This document shows, piece after piece, positions 1,987 to 32,800 of a stretch of 64,000 nt of DNA; the stretch's first letter is position 1, and every line of letters begins with the position of its first letter. The notes below the pieces were generated by a model. The model ran no database searches. It had not been told where the DNA came from and worked only from the letters and a program-made list of their open reading frames with translations. Origin of the DNA: a virus; IMG/VR virus record IMGVR_UViG_3300030105_002498, positions 29,331 to 93,330 of that record; one strand, given 5' to 3'. The translations under genes were made by a program, and so were the position numbers.

Positions 1987-2210
1987 GATACATACTGTTT
2001 AGATAGATAGTGGTTGACAAAATTGCCAGGAATCAGAGTGGGTCTCGAAGAGAACCTTGAGAAACAAGAAGTAGATTATTCTGCCCCAAGTTTATGTACT
2101 CTGCTAAAAATAGGTGGGGGTATTTAAGTTGGGAAAATGAGAGGGGGTTTTAATTAGGGTGGCTCACAAACTCACATTTTTCTAAAAAATTTTCACAAAC
2201 CTTTAAAAAA

Positions 2211-2242
2211 TTTGCGTACTAAAATAATCCTCAGTACCTTGT
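2211..2242 (+). promoter_or_regulatory. Bacteroidota sigma-A type promoter (-33/-7)
   Basis: TTTG (2211-2214), 20 nt, TACCTTGT (2235-2242); established consensus is TTTG-N19-21-TAnnTTTG. Confidence 0.6.
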
Positions 2243-2258
2243 TTCAAATTAAAATATT

Positions 2259-2477
2259 ATGAAAGACTTCACACACATAACACAGACAGAATTTTACGAA
2301 TTATTTATAGATACAGAAAGATATTCATGGAGACAGACTGCTCCTGATATGGATTGGAGAGAAGCACACATGGATTTTGTATGGGATAATGACACTATGG
2401 AAACAGTAGGATTTAAGAGGACTTCCTCATGGGGAGAAAAAGATGAATATTTTATCCAAGAAAAACTTGCATACTAA
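2259..2477 (+). CDS. hypothetical acidic, Trp-rich protein (72 aa)
   Basis: ORF directly after a promoter, with A-rich leader. Confidence 0.7.
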   Translation: MKDFTHITQTEFYELFIDTERYSWRQTAPDMDWREAHMDFVWDNDTMETVGFKRTSSWGEKDEYFIQEKLAY

Positions 2478-2497
2478 AATAAGTCTTATTATCTTGC
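2466..2497 (+). promoter_or_regulatory. promoter of the leader-peptide/tRNA operon
   Basis: CTTG (2466-2469), 20 nt, TATCTTGC (2490-2497); near-duplicate of the promoter at 2211. Confidence 0.6.
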
Positions 2498-2550
2498 AGT
2501 CATAAAGGGGTTTCGCTACCTGCCTTAATTTTTAATAAATAAATAAAAAA

Positions 2551-2607
2551 ATGTTTTTAATAACTATATATACTTATACTTGCAAATCGACTCACTACTG
2601 TGAGTAA
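2551..2607 (+). CDS. putative attenuator leader peptide MFLITIYTYTCKSTHYCE (18 aa)
   Basis: ATG after the A-rich tract AATAAATAAATAAAAAA; codons 4-10 are ATA ACT ATA TAT ACT TAT ACT; stop codon lies inside the antiterminator strand. Confidence 0.75.
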   Translation: MFLITIYTYTCKSTHYCE

Positions 2608-2681
2608 GAGCATTTCTATATTGTTATAACAAAACAAAAATTTAGGAGACTCTTACTTTAAAATAGTAAGGGTCTTTTTTT
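2590..2681 (+). promoter_or_regulatory. transcription attenuator with alternative 1:2, 2:3 and 3:4 helices
   Basis: 1:2 ACTCAC (2590-2595) / GTGAGT (2600-2605); 2:3 AGTAAGAG (2603-2610) / CTCTTACT (2650-2657); 3:4 terminator at 2645-2681. Confidence 0.75.
2645..2681 (+). terminator. intrinsic terminator immediately upstream of the tRNA genes
   Basis: stem GGAGACTCTTACT (2645-2657) / AGTAAGGGTCTTT (2665-2677), loop TTAAAAT, T7 tract at 2675-2681. Confidence 0.85.
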
Positions 2682-2685
2682 ATTT

Positions 2686-2769
2686 GGGACAGTATGCAAG
2701 TTAGTCAAAGCAGGTGGATTGTAAATCCATTCTCTCACGAGTTCATAGGTGCAAATCCTATCTGCCCCA
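2686..2769 (+). tRNA. trnY: tRNA-Tyr (GUA)
   Basis: cloverleaf with acceptor GGGACAG/CTGCCCC (one mismatch), anticodon arm GTGGA-TTGTAAA-TCCAT, long variable arm, T arm ATAGG-TGCAAAT-CCTAT; CCA not encoded. Confidence 0.85.
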
Positions 2770-2775
2770 CAACAT

Positions 2776-2849
2776 GGGTTTTTAGCTCAATTGGTTAGAG
2801 CACCTCACTCATAATGAGAAGGTTCTTAGTTCGAGTCTAAGGAGACCCA
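2776..2849 (+). tRNA. tRNA with CAU anticodon, probably Ile2 (lysidine, reads AUA)
   Basis: acceptor GGGTTTT/GAGACCC, D arm GCTC/GAGC, anticodon loop CTCATAA in an ACTCATAAT context typical of bacterial Ile2, T arm CTTAG-TTCGAGT-CTAAG; lacks initiator features. Confidence 0.85.
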
Positions 2850-2855
2850 CATTAC

Positions 2856-2928
2856 ACCATATTAGTATAGTGGCTAATTACACTTCTCTTGTAAAGAAGA
2901 AACAACAGTTCAACTCTGTTATATGGTG
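2856..2928 (+). tRNA. trnT: tRNA-Thr (UGU)
   Basis: acceptor ACCATAT/ATATGGT with C2:G71, anticodon arm CTTCT-CTTGTAA-AGAAG, T arm AACAG-TTCAACT-CTGTT; CCA not encoded. Confidence 0.75.
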
Positions 2929-3150
2929 CTACTCATAGGCATGTCCTGTTTGTTTTCTATTCTCAGCATTAGTTGCTGACCAGCCTCCTATATTAGGTAG
3001 ACCTTCTGACTCTTCATCAACTCTGGTACATTCTGTACTCTGACAAGTTGGGCATTTAAGAGGTCTTTTAAATTGATCCCTAAGTTCTCCTTTGATAGTG
3101 ATTAATCTTTGCACTTCAAATTCATGATTGTTCTCGCAAGTTATCTTCAT
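2929..3150 (-). CDS. small zinc-ribbon protein (FmdB-like)
   Basis: CENNH...CPTCQS metal-binding pattern. Confidence 0.65.
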   Translation of the reverse strand: MKITCENNHEFEVQRLITIKGELRDQFKRPLKCPTCQSTECTRVDEESEGLPNIGGWSATNAENRKQTGHAYE

Positions 3151-23764: not shown

Positions 23765-24292
23765 ATGGTGTTTAAAGTAGCTTATATAACAAAATTTTTT
23801 TTAGGAAAGAAGTCAGTTGTTCTGACTTCTTTCTTACTTAGCCTTTCCCTTGGAGGGATATTAAATCAAGTTTCAACCCGTGTCTCAACTAAAGACTTAG
23901 AAGGTTCAATCTTAGTGCTAGTAATTCTAGTTGGATTAACTGTATTCTTTTCTATTATAGATATGATTACAGGAGTTTTAGCTAGACCCAAAGGGTCAAA
24001 TATTAGTAGTGGTAAATGGGGAAACACAGTAGGAAAACTAGTATCTCTAGTTTTATACTTGAGCTTCAGTTTATTTCTAATGATTATTTTGTCAGATAAT
24101 TACTTTGTTTTAGTAGTTCTGTTCTCCCCCTTAGTTTTAAACATCCTCAAAGAATATATAAGTATTGGGGAAAACTTAGAAAAACTTAATGGAAAAAAGC
24201 CTTATTTATTTTCTGTAGTAGATAAGATATTCTTAATGCTAGAAAATAAGTTTTTCACTCACGTCACAGAAAAAATTAATAAACTAGAATAA
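23765..24292 (+). CDS. holin (phage holin 4_1-like)
   Basis: 3-4 TM segments; DMITGV...SS....K...EYISIGENLEKL motif. Confidence 0.7.
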   Translation: MVFKVAYITKFFLGKKSVVLTSFLLSLSLGGILNQVSTRVSTKDLEGSILVLVILVGLTVFFSIIDMITGVLARPKGSNISSGKWGNTVGKLVSLVLYLSFSLFLMIILSDNYFVLVVLFSPLVLNILKEYISIGENLEKLNGKKPYLFSVVDKIFLMLENKFFTHVTEKINKLE

Positions 24293-24293
24293 T

Positions 24294-25556
24294 ATGATTA
24301 ATAAAGAATTGATTAACCACATACTATCAAACTCAGGACAATTAAGAGATAAGGAAACTTGGTATGATGTGGGAGAAAAATTTCATGTTACTGCCCCCGA
24401 TGAAGACAAAGCTAAAATAGACAACACTTACAAGAAAAAAGCCGTAGCCAGGAAAGCTCAACAAATCTGGCAAAAATATATAGGTCAAAAGAATGACTTG
24501 AAATTAGACAGAGAAACTTATGTCAATGGAAAGTTAAAATTCGAGACCTTTAAGAAGAAGCCTGATTCAGCAGAAATGGATTTTGAAGGCTACAGTTTAG
24601 AGAGAGTTACCACCAATCCCTATGGTGGAATGTGGATGAAGTATAAGAAAGATGGACCAACCCCAGACAGCTTCAAAGAAATCCTAGAAGCTGGAAATAT
24701 CGAAGCTTGGAATATAGATAGAAATATAATTAAAGGAGAATCAGACTTAATGGTTCTTATCTCTGATACTCATATTGGAGCGAAATCTAGTAATGGTGAA
24801 GCTTACACTAAAGAAGTATATCAAGCTAGATTAAAATCAATCACAGACAATGTAATTAATAATCAAACTGCACCTTACAAAAGGTTGATAGTAGTTCACT
24901 TAGGAGACTGGTTAGATAGTGTATTTACTAATAGTGATTCTAAAACAGGATTGACTACAAGAGGTGGGCATGAGATGCCATCTTTATACTCTCCTGTGGA
25001 ATCTTTTAAGATGGCTTATGAAACTCACCTGAGTTTTATTAAAACACTTAGAGCAGAGGTAGAGCATGAATCTATGGAAGTTATAATGATGACCAATGCT
25101 AACCATGATTCTGATAGTGCTTTTGCAGCTTCAACTTGTTGTGAAATCCACTTAAAATACTTAGACCCTGAAATCAAATACACCACTTCAAGAGATTTTA
25201 TTGAAACTTTGAAGGTGCAAGGAGTGACTATAGGACTTTCACATGGAAAGGACAGAGAGTATTTGAATAGACCCTTACCTAGAGTGATGACAGAAAAGGT
25301 AGAGAATTACTTAATTTCCTACTGTCTGAATCATAACATTAATCCTAAAGAATTTATTTGTTTATCTGGAGACCAACATAATTGGTCAGATACTTTCTCA
25401 CAAAATTTAAGGTATATCAAATGCCCATCTCTTTTTGGGTCTTCAGAGCATTCAGAAATGAATTATGGAAGGTCTATTATTGGATTTGTAACTGCGGAAT
25501 TTAAGCCTGGAGCTACAATTAAAAATGGAGTCATTATAAAACCTGAACTATTATAA
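24294..25556 (+). CDS. calcineurin-like metallophosphoesterase
   Basis: motifs SDTHIG, GDWLD, ANHD, SHG, GDQH. Confidence 0.85.
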   Translation: MINKELINHILSNSGQLRDKETWYDVGEKFHVTAPDEDKAKIDNTYKKKAVARKAQQIWQKYIGQKNDLKLDRETYVNGKLKFETFKKKPDSAEMDFEGYSLERVTTNPYGGMWMKYKKDGPTPDSFKEILEAGNIEAWNIDRNIIKGESDLMVLISDTHIGAKSSNGEAYTKEVYQARLKSITDNVINNQTAPYKRLIVVHLGDWLDSVFTNSDSKTGLTTRGGHEMPSLYSPVESFKMAYETHLSFIKTLRAEVEHESMEVIMMTNANHDSDSAFAASTCCEIHLKYLDPEIKYTTSRDFIETLKVQGVTIGLSHGKDREYLNRPLPRVMTEKVENYLISYCLNHNINPKEFICLSGDQHNWSDTFSQNLRYIKCPSLFGSSEHSEMNYGRSIIGFVTAEFKPGATIKNGVIIKPELL

Positions 25557-29876: not shown

Positions 29877-32800
29877 ATGGCAGAAAAAAATAATGTTAAC
29901 AGATTAAGTAAAGGAATTAGTACTGATGTTTCTCCTATTGACCAAAAGCAAGGGACTTACAGGTATGCTAAAAATGCTGTACTTGAAAGCCGAGACGGAA
30001 ATATTGGATTCCTTTCTAATGAGTTAGGGAATGAAGTTTGCGCTTTGTTCCCTACTGGTTATACACCAATAGGTAAAGAGTACATGACTAATGGAGAAGT
30101 TGCTATCTTCCTAGTGAGCTTAGATGATGCTACATCTGAGATAGGTATTCTAAAAGATAACTGTACTTATGAAACTGTAGTTAATACTAACTTAGGTTTT
30201 AAAATAAAAAATCAGATAGACGCTACTTACAGATTGAGAAGAGGTTGTGAAAGAACTGTCTACTTTACTGATGGTGCTAACAAACCAAGAATATTTAACT
30301 TTGATAGTCCAGAAGACTTTCAAGATGGAGCTGGAGCTTGGGTTGAAACTAAGTTCAATCTATTCAAGATTTATAATAGCATTCCAAGATTTTCAAATAT
30401 TGAGATTGCGGAGACAGGACAATTACCTCCTGGTTCATACAACGCTGCTATACAGTATCTTGATGAAGACTTTAATCCTACAGAATGGATTAATACTACA
30501 GACACAGTTATTATTTACAATGATAATGGTAAGTCAAAGCCTTTTAGAGATGTAAGAGGTTCTACAAATGCTATCACGGATTACCAAGACTATGGTAATA
30601 CTAATAAGTCCATCAAGTTTACACTTAGTAACTTAGATGAAACCTTTTTATTTTATAGAATAGCTATCATTGAAGCTAACAATGGTTCTGGAAATGTGAG
30701 TAGAGTTGTTTTCTCAGGAGAGATTTCTACTAAAATACTGAGTTACACTTATACTGGAACTAATGGACAGACTGAAGGTACTGTACAAGAGATACAACAG
30801 TTTAATAATATCATTGAAAGTGCTAAACATATTGAGCAAATTGAAAACAGACTAATTTTATCTAATACACAAGGTAAGCAAATTAACTATTGTAGATTAC
30901 AAAAGTATGCTTCAAGAATTAAAGCTAATCTAGTTACTGAATCAGTAGTACTTAATGATCTAACTTTTGAGAACAATCAAAAGAGACCTGAACACCACCT
31001 TGAAAAAGTAGGCTACATGCCAGGAGAGATATACTCTTTTGGGATTGTATGGGTATTTGATGATGGCACTACATCACCTGGTTATCATATTCCAGGTAAA
31101 GCTTCAACTTACAATTCTCTGATGAGTTCAGATAATGTACTAGAGAATAGTTTCTATACTGAGAATGATAGTTGTAGTGGAGAAGACTTTTGGGGATATG
31201 ATTCTCAAGGGACACCTTTAAAAAATACAGCAATTAGACATCACAGATTCCCACTAAGAAGTAAAGTTAATAAACCTTTAGTTACAAGTCTTGGTTCAAG
31301 TACTGAGTTAACTCAGAATGTTTTATCTCTTACTATTACTGGAACTATTGCTGACCCTCCTGTAAGTGCTTCGACTATGGAGGTGACTGTCAATTATACT
31401 ATTGATGCTGTTGCTGCTACAGAAGTTATTGACATAAACACAGAGACTTATGACCCAGCAACAGGAATATTAAATCTTCAGATAACTTCTAACTTAGGTG
31501 TGTTAGTATTTGTAGATGTATTAGAAACTCCTGATGCAGGTGGAGCTGGTGTTGCTCCTTCAACAAATTCAACTTTAACTTATGTTGGTACAGTTACAGA
31601 AGAAACTGTAATCTTAAATGATATAGTTTATACTTCAGACATATTTGGGATTAACTTCTCTAATATTGATGTACCAAGTGCTGATGACCTTAATGGAGAA
31701 GTTGTAGTTGGTTACTACATTGTGAGAAACAAAAGAGAAGAAGCTGAGAAGACTATTTTAGATACTGGTGTTATCACACCTTTACTTGAAGAAAAGAGAG
31801 CAGGAGTCAGTAAGTTTGTTTCCTTTGGACACATAGCACCAGAGAGTGCAGATTTAAAAGATGATGTATTTGCACTAGTTCACCCTGAACATAAATTTAG
31901 ACAAAAAGAATATACAGGTGTCACAGAGTTGATACAAGAAGGTGAGTATGTTATAACAAGTAGAAATGTTTCTTCCCGTGTTACACAAGATGTGCTACCT
32001 GGGACTTCTTACGATGCTTCTGTAAATAAAAGAAGAGAGAGGGATTCTGATGGTTTCGATTTACATACTATTACTAGAAACAACAATGTTACTTATAATG
32101 TAAAAGAAGGAACTCTTGCAGATCAAGCTGACATAAATGAAGTCTTTTATCTTGACAGTCTTTTTAGTAAGACTATTACTGACTTAGGTGGAGATAGAAA
32201 AGACATCTTCAATATGTCAGGAGATAACAAGACTGGAATCTTACACTTAAATAAAACTTTAGATACTGTTGATCTAAGAGATAATCTTCCTTATGTAGTT
32301 ATGAAGAGAACTTTAACTGACCCTTATGGGAATTTTAGAGTGCTACCTTATTACAAGGAGAATGCAAACACAATTAACCTTAGTGGAGCTACAGAGAATA
32401 CTGTAACAATCTTTAATGGAGATTCTTATATCTCTTCAATGAGATATGTTTCTTCAAGTTACTATGACCTAAGAATCAAAGATAGAGATAGAAAATCAGG
32501 AGCACTTAATTTTATTATAGGTGTTCTTGGAGTTATTACTGGAGCTGTTTTAATTGCTACAGGTGTTGGAGCTGCTGCTGGTATTGCTGTTATTGGTTTT
32601 GGAGTTACACAACTATCAACAGGATTTAAAGTTGCACAAGCTTCAAGAGTTTACCAAGATTTGTATGACCAAGGTTTACAAGATACTGTAGATGATGCTG
32701 CTACCCAACAATACTTTGCACCTGACCCACAAGATGATGAATTACAATGGATGACAGATGTTGTCACTAACCTTTGGTTTGAGAGTAGTGTGAATATGAA

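Follow-up and report, generated by a model that had tools for sequence, protein, structure and literature searches.

Can a phage control its own tRNA genes through a leader peptide written in the codons that those tRNAs read? The question is raised by a locus in a 64,000-nucleotide stretch of DNA (the window), in which a promoter-like sequence, a short open reading frame (ORF) and an intrinsic terminator stand directly before three tRNA genes. The window comprises bases 29331-93330 of a 93.3-kb, CheckV-complete IMG/VR phage (IMGVR_UViG_3300030105_002498) from marine metagenomes. The phage terminase shares ~66% DNA identity with the Flavobacterium psychrophilum FpV4/Fpv1 group, and by this comparison the source is an FpV4-like marine flavobacterial phage. 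Phage tRNA genes are usually viewed as simply expressed, either matching codon usage or replacing degraded host tRNAs, and we know of little on how they are regulated. We propose, with a probability of about 0.6, that the locus is a ribosome-mediated (leader-peptide) transcription attenuator gating a three-gene phage tRNA operon. An earlier note on this DNA had suggested an attenuator with a leader composed of codons that the downstream tRNAs decode. The core of that suggestion is supported here, whereas its identity for the CAU tRNA and its early stall codons are not, and in a close relative the array has changed without the leader run. The elements of the unit, each within 1-2 nt of where the promoter, ORF, terminator and tRNAs had been placed before, are as follows.

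2467-2496, plus strand: P2, a promoter-like TTG-N20-TAtcTTG, identified by sequence match only; it overlaps the last codons of a 72-codon gene and is the putative promoter of the leader and tRNA unit.
2551-2607, plus strand: leader ORF of 18 codons plus TAA (2605-2607), opened by the first AUG after P2 and encoding MFLITIYTYTCKSTHYCE.
2560-2580, plus strand: regulatory codon run ATA ACT ATA TAT ACT TAT ACT (I T I Y T Y T), from the codon-run search.
2590-2605, plus strand: anti-antiterminator (protector) hairpin ACTCAC/GTGAGT, strands 1:2, from folding.
2602-2618, plus strand: antiterminator strand (strand 2), which contains the leader stop and pairs with 2645-2657.
2644-2685, plus strand: intrinsic terminator with stem 2644-2678 (strands 3:4), a U tract of 7 U at 2675-2681 and then AUUU; about -16.2 kcal/mol by folding.
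2686-2770, plus strand: tRNA-Tyr(GUA), 46.9 bits.
2776-2850, plus strand: tRNA with anticodon CAU, elongator-Met-like by sequence comparison.
2856-2929, plus strand: tRNA-Thr(UGU), 60.7 bits.

The leader ORF is the sole plus-strand ATG ORF between P2 and the terminator. It has a three-part layout, with a short N-terminus, the cognate run and a non-cognate tail that holds strand 2. Codons 4-10 consist only of Ile(AUA), Thr and Tyr codons, as had been noticed before. This run is moreover the only one of at least six codons from the set {ATA, ACN, TAY}, defined by the three tRNAs, in the whole 93-kb genome on both strands and in all frames. Markov models of order 1 and order 3 gave an expectation of 0.32 runs of at least six and 0.04 runs of at least seven codons per genome, and the same models matched the observed runs of five (4 seen, ~4 expected). 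With a further ACT (2590-2592) and TAC (2596-2598), 9 of 17 leader codons are cognate, compared with a background of 0.145 in the phage's own codon usage (binomial p = 2e-4). The region upstream of the leader ATG is A/U-rich and unstructured, with A at -3, -6, -12 and -13. An A-rich, Kozak-like start context fits initiation in Bacteroidota and Flavobacterium. The 5' untranslated region (UTR) is 48 nt long and contains a hairpin of its own.

The terminator hairpin has a folding energy of -16.3 kcal/mol on the plus strand and -12.0 kcal/mol on the minus strand, where it is weaker because its G-U pairs turn into C-A mismatches. Therefore, the hairpin is built for the plus strand. As tRNA-Tyr starts 4 nt past the U tract, a separate tRNA promoter within or after the hairpin finds no space before the tRNAs. 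Expression of the tRNAs therefore needs read-through from P2 or from P1, a second promoter-like sequence further upstream. The exact complementarity of AGTAAGAG (2603-2610) to CTCTTACT (2650-2657), already recognized in the earlier note, proved to be part of a longer pairing. The antiterminator formed by 2603-2617 with 2645-2657 has 13 bp, a 2-nt bulge and an energy of -12.5 kcal/mol, and spans the entire 5' arm of the terminator; in dinucleotide shuffles of the upstream region this energy was equalled in just 0.2-0.6%.

The nascent RNA was folded up to the terminator loop with ~28 nt masked by a ribosome at each A-site position. Without a ribosome, the ACTCAC/GTGAGT hairpin forms with a probability of 0.96, in keeping with the proposal that it partly sequesters strand 2, and the antiterminator with a probability of 0.01. 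The hairpin is gone once the A site is at codon 11 or beyond. The probability of the antiterminator is 0.1-0.3 with the ribosome at codons 4-9, rises to 0.58 at codon 10 and to 0.75-0.95 at codons 11-14, drops to 0.04 or less at codon 15 and is 0 from codon 16 to the stop. In this model a stall would take effect where the run ends and at ACT-14 rather than at the first Ile/Thr/Tyr codons. The geometry of trp, his and thr attenuators claimed before is thus reproduced for a ribosome that stalls at codons 10-14 and frees the antiterminator, and for one at the stop that masks it, but not for codons 4-9. The full-length leader RNA always prefers the terminator fold, and control would therefore be kinetic, as in trp.

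Given these elements, statistics and alternative folds, we infer that P2 is used and the leader is translated, and that the unit would work in the following way. Transcription would begin at P2, with a start at about 2501-2504 (taken as about 2503), and the first AUG would open the 18-codon frame. A ribosome that reaches the stop would cover about 2590-2617, that is, all of the antiterminator strand. Strand 2 being covered, the terminator at 2644-2681 would form and transcription would stop 4 nt before tRNA-Tyr. When the Thr and Tyr codons (and perhaps the Ile-AUA codons) of the run are decoded slowly, the ribosome would stall upstream and melt the ACUCAC/GUGAGU hairpin, leaving 2603-2617 free. 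The free segment would pair with the 5' arm of the terminator, and RNA polymerase would continue into tRNA-Tyr, tRNA-CAU and tRNA-Thr. In ribosome-free RNA, the 1:2 hairpin would keep strand 2 and the terminator would form. If the switch runs in this direction, its net effect would be a demand-driven supply, with phage tRNAs made when functional charged tRNA for these codons drops. Such a drop might come from the codon demand of the phage, from shut-off of the host or from defences that cleave tRNA, and recovery of decoding would cut tRNA production again.

Is the arrangement confined to this phage? Cellulophaga phages of three lineages (phi17:2, phi10:1 and phi38:1) showed the same architecture in unrelated sequence, and no sequence homology was detected between their leaders and that of the window. 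In phi17:2, three strong terminators, which end 5-9 nt before a tRNA, split a region of 22 tRNAs. All three have an upstream Bacteroidota-type promoter motif, with a full consensus match in the first two, and a small ORF. The units are listed below.

phi17:2 unit 1: leader ORF L216 617-685, with the run QRLHLQELEQP of 11 consecutive codons, all cognate at codon level; block of Pro, Glu, Gln, His, Leu(UAG), Leu(UAA) and Arg(ACG).
phi17:2 unit 2: leader ORF L216 1577-1660, with the run TKTGITVIDKTKGARA, where 22/26 residues are amino acids of the block; block of Ala, Lys, Ile, Gly, CAU, Asp, Thr, Val, Arg(UCU) and CAU.
phi17:2 unit 3: leader ORF L216 3136-3234, with the run N-Y-C-T-Y-N-N-S-N-W-S-F-S-Y; block of Tyr, Ser, Asn, Trp and Phe.
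phi38:1 (a different family), two units: leader ORFs L219 284-361 and 1745-1834.
phi10:1 (a third family), one unit: leader ORF L218 968-1033.

Matching of the leaders to their own blocks gave binomial p values from 7e-6 to 0.09. The window unit and the three phi17:2 units are independent of one another, and in these four every leader is most enriched for its own block. The leader of phi10:1 contains the run SYSCFSYSF, while the annotated tRNAs are Tyr and Phe only. This run therefore predicted Ser and Cys tRNAs, and a relaxed ARAGORN scan of phi10:1 found tRNA-Ser(UGA) at L218 1346-1431 and tRNA-Cys(GCA) at 1436-1507, the latter with Rfam support (34 bits). Five of the seven leaders carry a significant antiterminator strand (p from <0.001 to 0.028), located either at the stop of the ORF or within its non-cognate 3' tail. 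Mask folding of the Cellulophaga units also behaved alike, as a ribosome in the run leaves the terminator 5' arm sequestered and a ribosome past the run frees it. The check proposed in the earlier note, that leader codons should follow the array in other phages, thus found own-block matching in Cellulophaga phages but failed in a close relative of the window phage, where a Thr-to-His change in the array left the run as it was.

The units of phi17:2/phi4:1, phi38:1 and phi10:1 share with the window the order of promoter, small ORF, terminator and tRNA. The first tRNA (in phi38:1 a weak tRNA-like stretch) lies no more than 22 nt, and usually 3-9 nt, from the hairpin, the central run of the ORF spells the amino acids of the block, and the non-cognate tail holds the antiterminator strand. 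They differ from the window in that the leader ATG follows the -7 box by 4-18 nt, whereas the window has a 48-nt 5' UTR with a hairpin, and in the small size of the window block (3 tRNAs, with a run of 7 codons). On balance we lean, by a narrow step, towards the view that unrelated phage lineages gate tRNA blocks by leader-peptide attenuators using the codons of the downstream tRNAs, which would make this a modular, self-referential 'tRNA on demand' circuit. As judged from sequence, the lineages concerned would be the FpV4-like marine flavobacterial phage and the three Cellulophaga phage lineages.

Some further features of the Cellulophaga phages were recorded. The leaders are annotated as hypothetical proteins (gp077, gp066) or unannotated, and tRNA-Ser(UGA) and tRNA-Cys(GCA) of phi10:1 are unannotated in NC_021802.1, at about 31845-32006. 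In phi38:1, tRNA-like stretches follow directly after both leader terminators (L219:421-497 and 1932-2014). The first has a TGC anticodon-like loop and is called by neither ARAGORN nor Rfam, the second is tRNA-Tyr(GUA) by relaxed ARAGORN only, and Rfam gave no support for either; both may be degenerate first members of their tRNA blocks. At L216:605-617 and L219:1732-1745 the leader ATG is only 4 nt past the -7 promoter-like box, and the Cellulophaga leader mRNAs may therefore be leaderless or nearly so.

How well is the leader of the window conserved? The sole relative that has it is IMGVR_UViG_3300035196_000195, together with matching metagenome contigs. Compared with the window, the leader of this relative is 1.9% divergent (4 substitutions and 1 indel), the adjacent gene 8.2% and the tRNAs 1.2% (Fisher test, p = 0.0037). 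The leader thus appears to be conserved like an RNA, four-fold better than the adjacent gene. The DNA contigs compared held two leader haplotypes, and with one close relative and two haplotypes no compensatory helix change was found among the 4 substitutions and 1 indel. The array of the relative is Tyr-CAU-His(GUG), compared with Tyr-CAU-Thr in the window. A tRNA-His(GUG) at L004:3597-3670 stands where the window has tRNA-Thr(UGU), and the flank downstream of it is different as well, a cassette-like exchange of the final tRNA. Codon 17 of its leader is changed from TGT (Cys) to CAT (His), a two-base change. Beside the tRNA-His swap, this suggests, anecdotally, an adjustment from Cys to His; a ribosome stalled at this position would mask the antiterminator. 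No leader homologue was found in the cultured-phage collection, and none in IMG/VR by the tRNA-Tyr pattern beyond the one close relative. None of 80 terminase relatives has the leader, and 4 of the 80 have any tRNA at that place.

Several observations weigh against the proposed attenuator. The match of P2 to the Bacteroidota -7 consensus is imperfect, and the first six codons of the run are weak predicted stall positions. All four Thr codons of the leader are ACU, which the UGU anticodon reads only with U34 wobble. In the relative, the lone helix change (G2600A) weakens the 1:2 hairpin. The relative also keeps four Thr codons in its leader (ACT-5 being changed to ACC) next to its tRNA-His, and no tRNA-Thr was found in its 35-kb fragment. 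The tRNA set has changed while the Thr-rich run stayed; over short times, therefore, the leader follows its array only loosely. In addition, terminator-like hairpins occur before tRNAs elsewhere. On the minus strand of the genome (25481-25530), an 8-bp GC-rich hairpin followed by ACUUUU lies 6 nt before tRNA-Arg(UCU) (25406-25480), directly after a protein gene and with no codon-matched leader. Contig L143 likewise has such a hairpin before tRNAs that lack a matching leader. In L143 the 16-mer shared by P1 and P2 lies at the end of an ordinary ORF of 46 codons, with a terminator and Arg/Asp tRNAs behind it; as this ORF shows no Arg/Asp enrichment, L143 was rejected as a member of the class. 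Adjacency of a hairpin and tRNAs alone is therefore not diagnostic.

The CAU tRNA is a further point on this side. It had been taken as Ile2-type, but sequence comparison points to elongator Met and the Ile2 features are absent. Over positions 8-42 it is 94% identical to the E. coli elongator tRNA-Met (metT/U), and 26 consecutive bases, from the D loop through the anticodon loop, are identical in a Shigella metU-type gene. It has U4-A69, U5-G68 and a CCUCA/UGAGA anticodon stem; the tRNA-Ile(CAU) of E. coli and of RB18 have C4-G69, C5-G68 and a GCGA/UCGC anticodon stem in common. As a control, the CAU tRNA annotated as tRNA-Ile in the T4-like phage RB18 correctly matched tRNA-Ile. A contig scan for the core of the CAU tRNA gave the Shigella metU-type tRNA alone, and no Bacteroidota Met or Ile2 reference was obtained. 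The CAU tRNA therefore looks elongator-Met-like by E. coli/T4 criteria, which may not be those of Bacteroidota TilS. It follows that the two ATA codons are not securely cognate to the array, and they may be read by none of its tRNAs; the claim that the three tRNAs read all codons of the run holds for Thr and Tyr and is weakened for AUA. The tRNA-Ile(UAU) of the phage sits 9 kb off on the opposite strand. Alternatively, ATA may be read by a lysidine-modified CAU tRNA, as the leader rule itself would suggest.

These points bear on what the switch would sense. The best surviving alternative, which we nevertheless regard as unlikely, keeps a ribosome-dependent attenuator but lets it sense general translation status, be it amino-acid starvation, ribosome shortage or any slow decoding, so that the I/T/Y run is merely a stretch of slow A/U-rich codons. 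Such a sensor would have no difficulty with a Met-like CAU tRNA that leaves ATA unmatched by the array, with a relative that exchanged Thr for His under an unaltered run, or with the use of ACU, a codon to which a UGU anticodon is less than ideally suited. Moreover, the codons at which a stall is predicted to work best (10-14) include the non-cognate TGC, AAA and TCG. However, the run, unique in the genome, holds only amino acids plausibly served by the array, and each Cellulophaga leader matches its own block but not those next to it in the phage genome. A stretch of slow codons also does not explain how a leader could predict the hidden Ser and Cys tRNAs.

A second alternative, to which we give a little less credence, dispenses with the ribosome. 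The hairpin would be an ordinary leaky, possibly bidirectional terminator, and the small ORF and its codon bias would be chance products of an AT-rich spacer. The terminator would end the P1/P2 unit and the minus-strand genes 3448-2929, the tRNAs would be made constitutively by read-through, and the hairpin would protect the upstream RNA after the RNase P cut at the tRNA 5' end. Indeed, the convergent minus-strand genes (3448 to 2929) may also end at this hairpin, which on the minus strand still has -12 kcal/mol and a U-rich tail. The hairpins 6-22 nt before tRNA-Arg and the L143 tRNAs fit this explanation, as do the restriction of homologues to one close relative and the composition of the run, which lies in a near-palindromic stretch of ~93% A+T. 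It would, however, need the run (~0.04 per genome) and the antiterminator (0.2-0.6% of shuffles) to have arisen together by chance, with a stop codon falling within strand 2 as well. Nor does it account for the four-fold better conservation of the leader than of the neighbouring gene, the G-U pairs that render the hairpin plus-strand-specific, or the recurrence of the design in unrelated Cellulophaga phage sequence.

Least probable of all is a role of the ~180-nt transcript from P2 to the terminator as a small RNA in its own right, or a read-through governed not by the ribosome but by a protein of the phage or the host (an antitermination factor or RNA-binding protein). This transcript folds better than shuffles (z = -3.7) and has, besides its 5' hairpin, a second segment (2504-2514) complementary to the terminator 5' arm; terminated attenuator RNAs of other bacteria can act in trans (rnTrpL, PMC6614838). 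However, it has no Rfam hit above threshold (PyrR and trpB lie far below their gathering scores), no protein-binding repeats and no T-box elements, and the in-frame cognate run and the matching in other phages would be left unexplained.

Upstream of the leader, three further features were found.

2212-2241, plus strand: P1, promoter-like, Bacteroidota -33/-7 type by sequence match, ahead of the first plus-strand gene at a strand switch.
2259-2477, plus strand: 72-codon gene, downstream of P1 and with its end overlapped by P2.
2505-2526, plus strand: 5'-proximal hairpin of the leader transcript, from folding.

The 16-mer TTGCRTACTAAAATAA opens P1 and P2 alike, is followed by TAnnTTG in both and occurs in exactly two copies in the window. 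More than 100 contigs sharing this 16-mer were rejected as chance matches, none of them having the leader. The P1 region (2200-2258) shows zero differences between the window and the close relative. At window positions 2198-2259, one marine-metagenome contig has 422 other bases in place of 60 nt with P1, while the 72-codon gene, the leader and the tRNAs are nearly unaltered in it. The segment 2504-2514 (AAAGGGGUUUC), at the 5' end of the leader transcript and making up the 5' half of this hairpin, is similar to the terminator 3' arm. In nascent-RNA folds it is able to pair with the terminator 5' arm across 140 nt, and it is normally held in the local 5' hairpin.

The phage carries other genes of the translation apparatus. 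A full-length tmRNA (Rfam RF00023, 98.8 bits, E = 2e-38) is encoded on the minus strand at genome positions 23969-24416 (L010:2461-2908), ~5 kb before the window start, in a region shared with four further tRNA-like genes. A second tRNA cluster (genome 22924-25480, minus strand) comprises tRNA-Arg(UCU), a tRNA-Ile(UAU) of 143 nt that carries an internal insert, a 70-nt tRNA whose anticodon loop is abnormal, and an ARAGORN 'tRNA-Pyl(CUA)' call that lacks Rfam support. The tmRNA together with an attenuated tRNA operon suggests a heavy investment in rescuing or sustaining translation.

Does the unit belong to a known class? A search of the leader region gave no Rfam family at or above its gathering threshold, with Thr_leader, His_leader, Trp_leader, the PyrR site and sRNA families among those covered. 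The best hits were PyrR (26.7 bits, threshold 54) and the trpB motif (21.6 bits, threshold 59). T-boxes of Firmicutes and Actinobacteria contact uncharged tRNA themselves, by a specifier codon and a UGGN bulge, and need no ribosome. Like the window, they let tRNA decide between terminator and antiterminator upstream of genes with a role in translation. Unlike them, the window has an in-frame ORF with a start codon and no UGG in its leader, and a T-box riboswitch was rejected, as no RF00230-type hit was obtained at E up to 10 and no TGG occurs in 2500-2685.

Closer in design are the multivalent enterobacterial leaders thrL (Thr/Ile) and ilvL (Ile/Val/Leu), besides trpL, hisL and pheL (PMC1183508; partly textbook). 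The window shares with the thrL/ilvL type a promoter-proximal short ORF with a regulatory codon run, several amino acids per leader, the 1:2 protector, 2:3 antiterminator and 3:4 terminator, and a stop placed so that a terminating ribosome masks strand 2. However, those attenuators control biosynthetic enzymes, whereas the window unit would regulate tRNAs, and the loop would therefore sense the functional pool of its own product. The window unit is also phage-encoded and of Bacteroidota type, with a -33/-7 promoter, no Shine-Dalgarno sequence and an A-rich start context, and no sequence or Rfam relationship links the enterobacterial leaders to it.

The nearest published conditionally expressed accessory tRNA operon is the trn array of Anabaena PCC 7120, a long tRNA array that is silent and is induced under translational stress (PMC8421152, PMC10272220). 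Its control lies with a ribbon-helix-helix DNA-binding repressor, TrcR (PMC10272220). As proposed here for the window, the trn operon is off and is switched on when translation is impaired, but it is cellular and repressor-controlled, whereas the window unit is phage-encoded and would use a leader peptide and a terminator. A full-text literature search found no report of leader-peptide attenuation or control of tRNA genes, in agreement with the earlier note, which knew no such attenuator from phage tRNA arrays.

If the proposed circuit exists, leaders would predict tRNA content and identity, of which the Ser and Cys tRNAs of phi10:1 are an example, and the same rule would argue that the CAU tRNA of the window decodes AUA. 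For annotation, small ORFs before terminator-preceded tRNA blocks would be read as regulatory leaders, and their composition would indicate which tRNAs lie behind the terminator, among them degenerate genes overlooked by standard tools. The class is testable in a cultured system, Cellulophaga baltica with phi38:1, phi17:2 or phi10:1. Leader-peptide control of tRNA genes would bring the decoding machinery itself under a textbook mechanism so far known from amino-acid, synthetase and resistance genes, and would offer a simple reason for the splitting of phage tRNA arrays into blocks. It would also provide a direct feedback sensor of functional tRNA pools in infection, so that the phage would adjust its tRNA output when host tRNAs are depleted or cut by defence nucleases.

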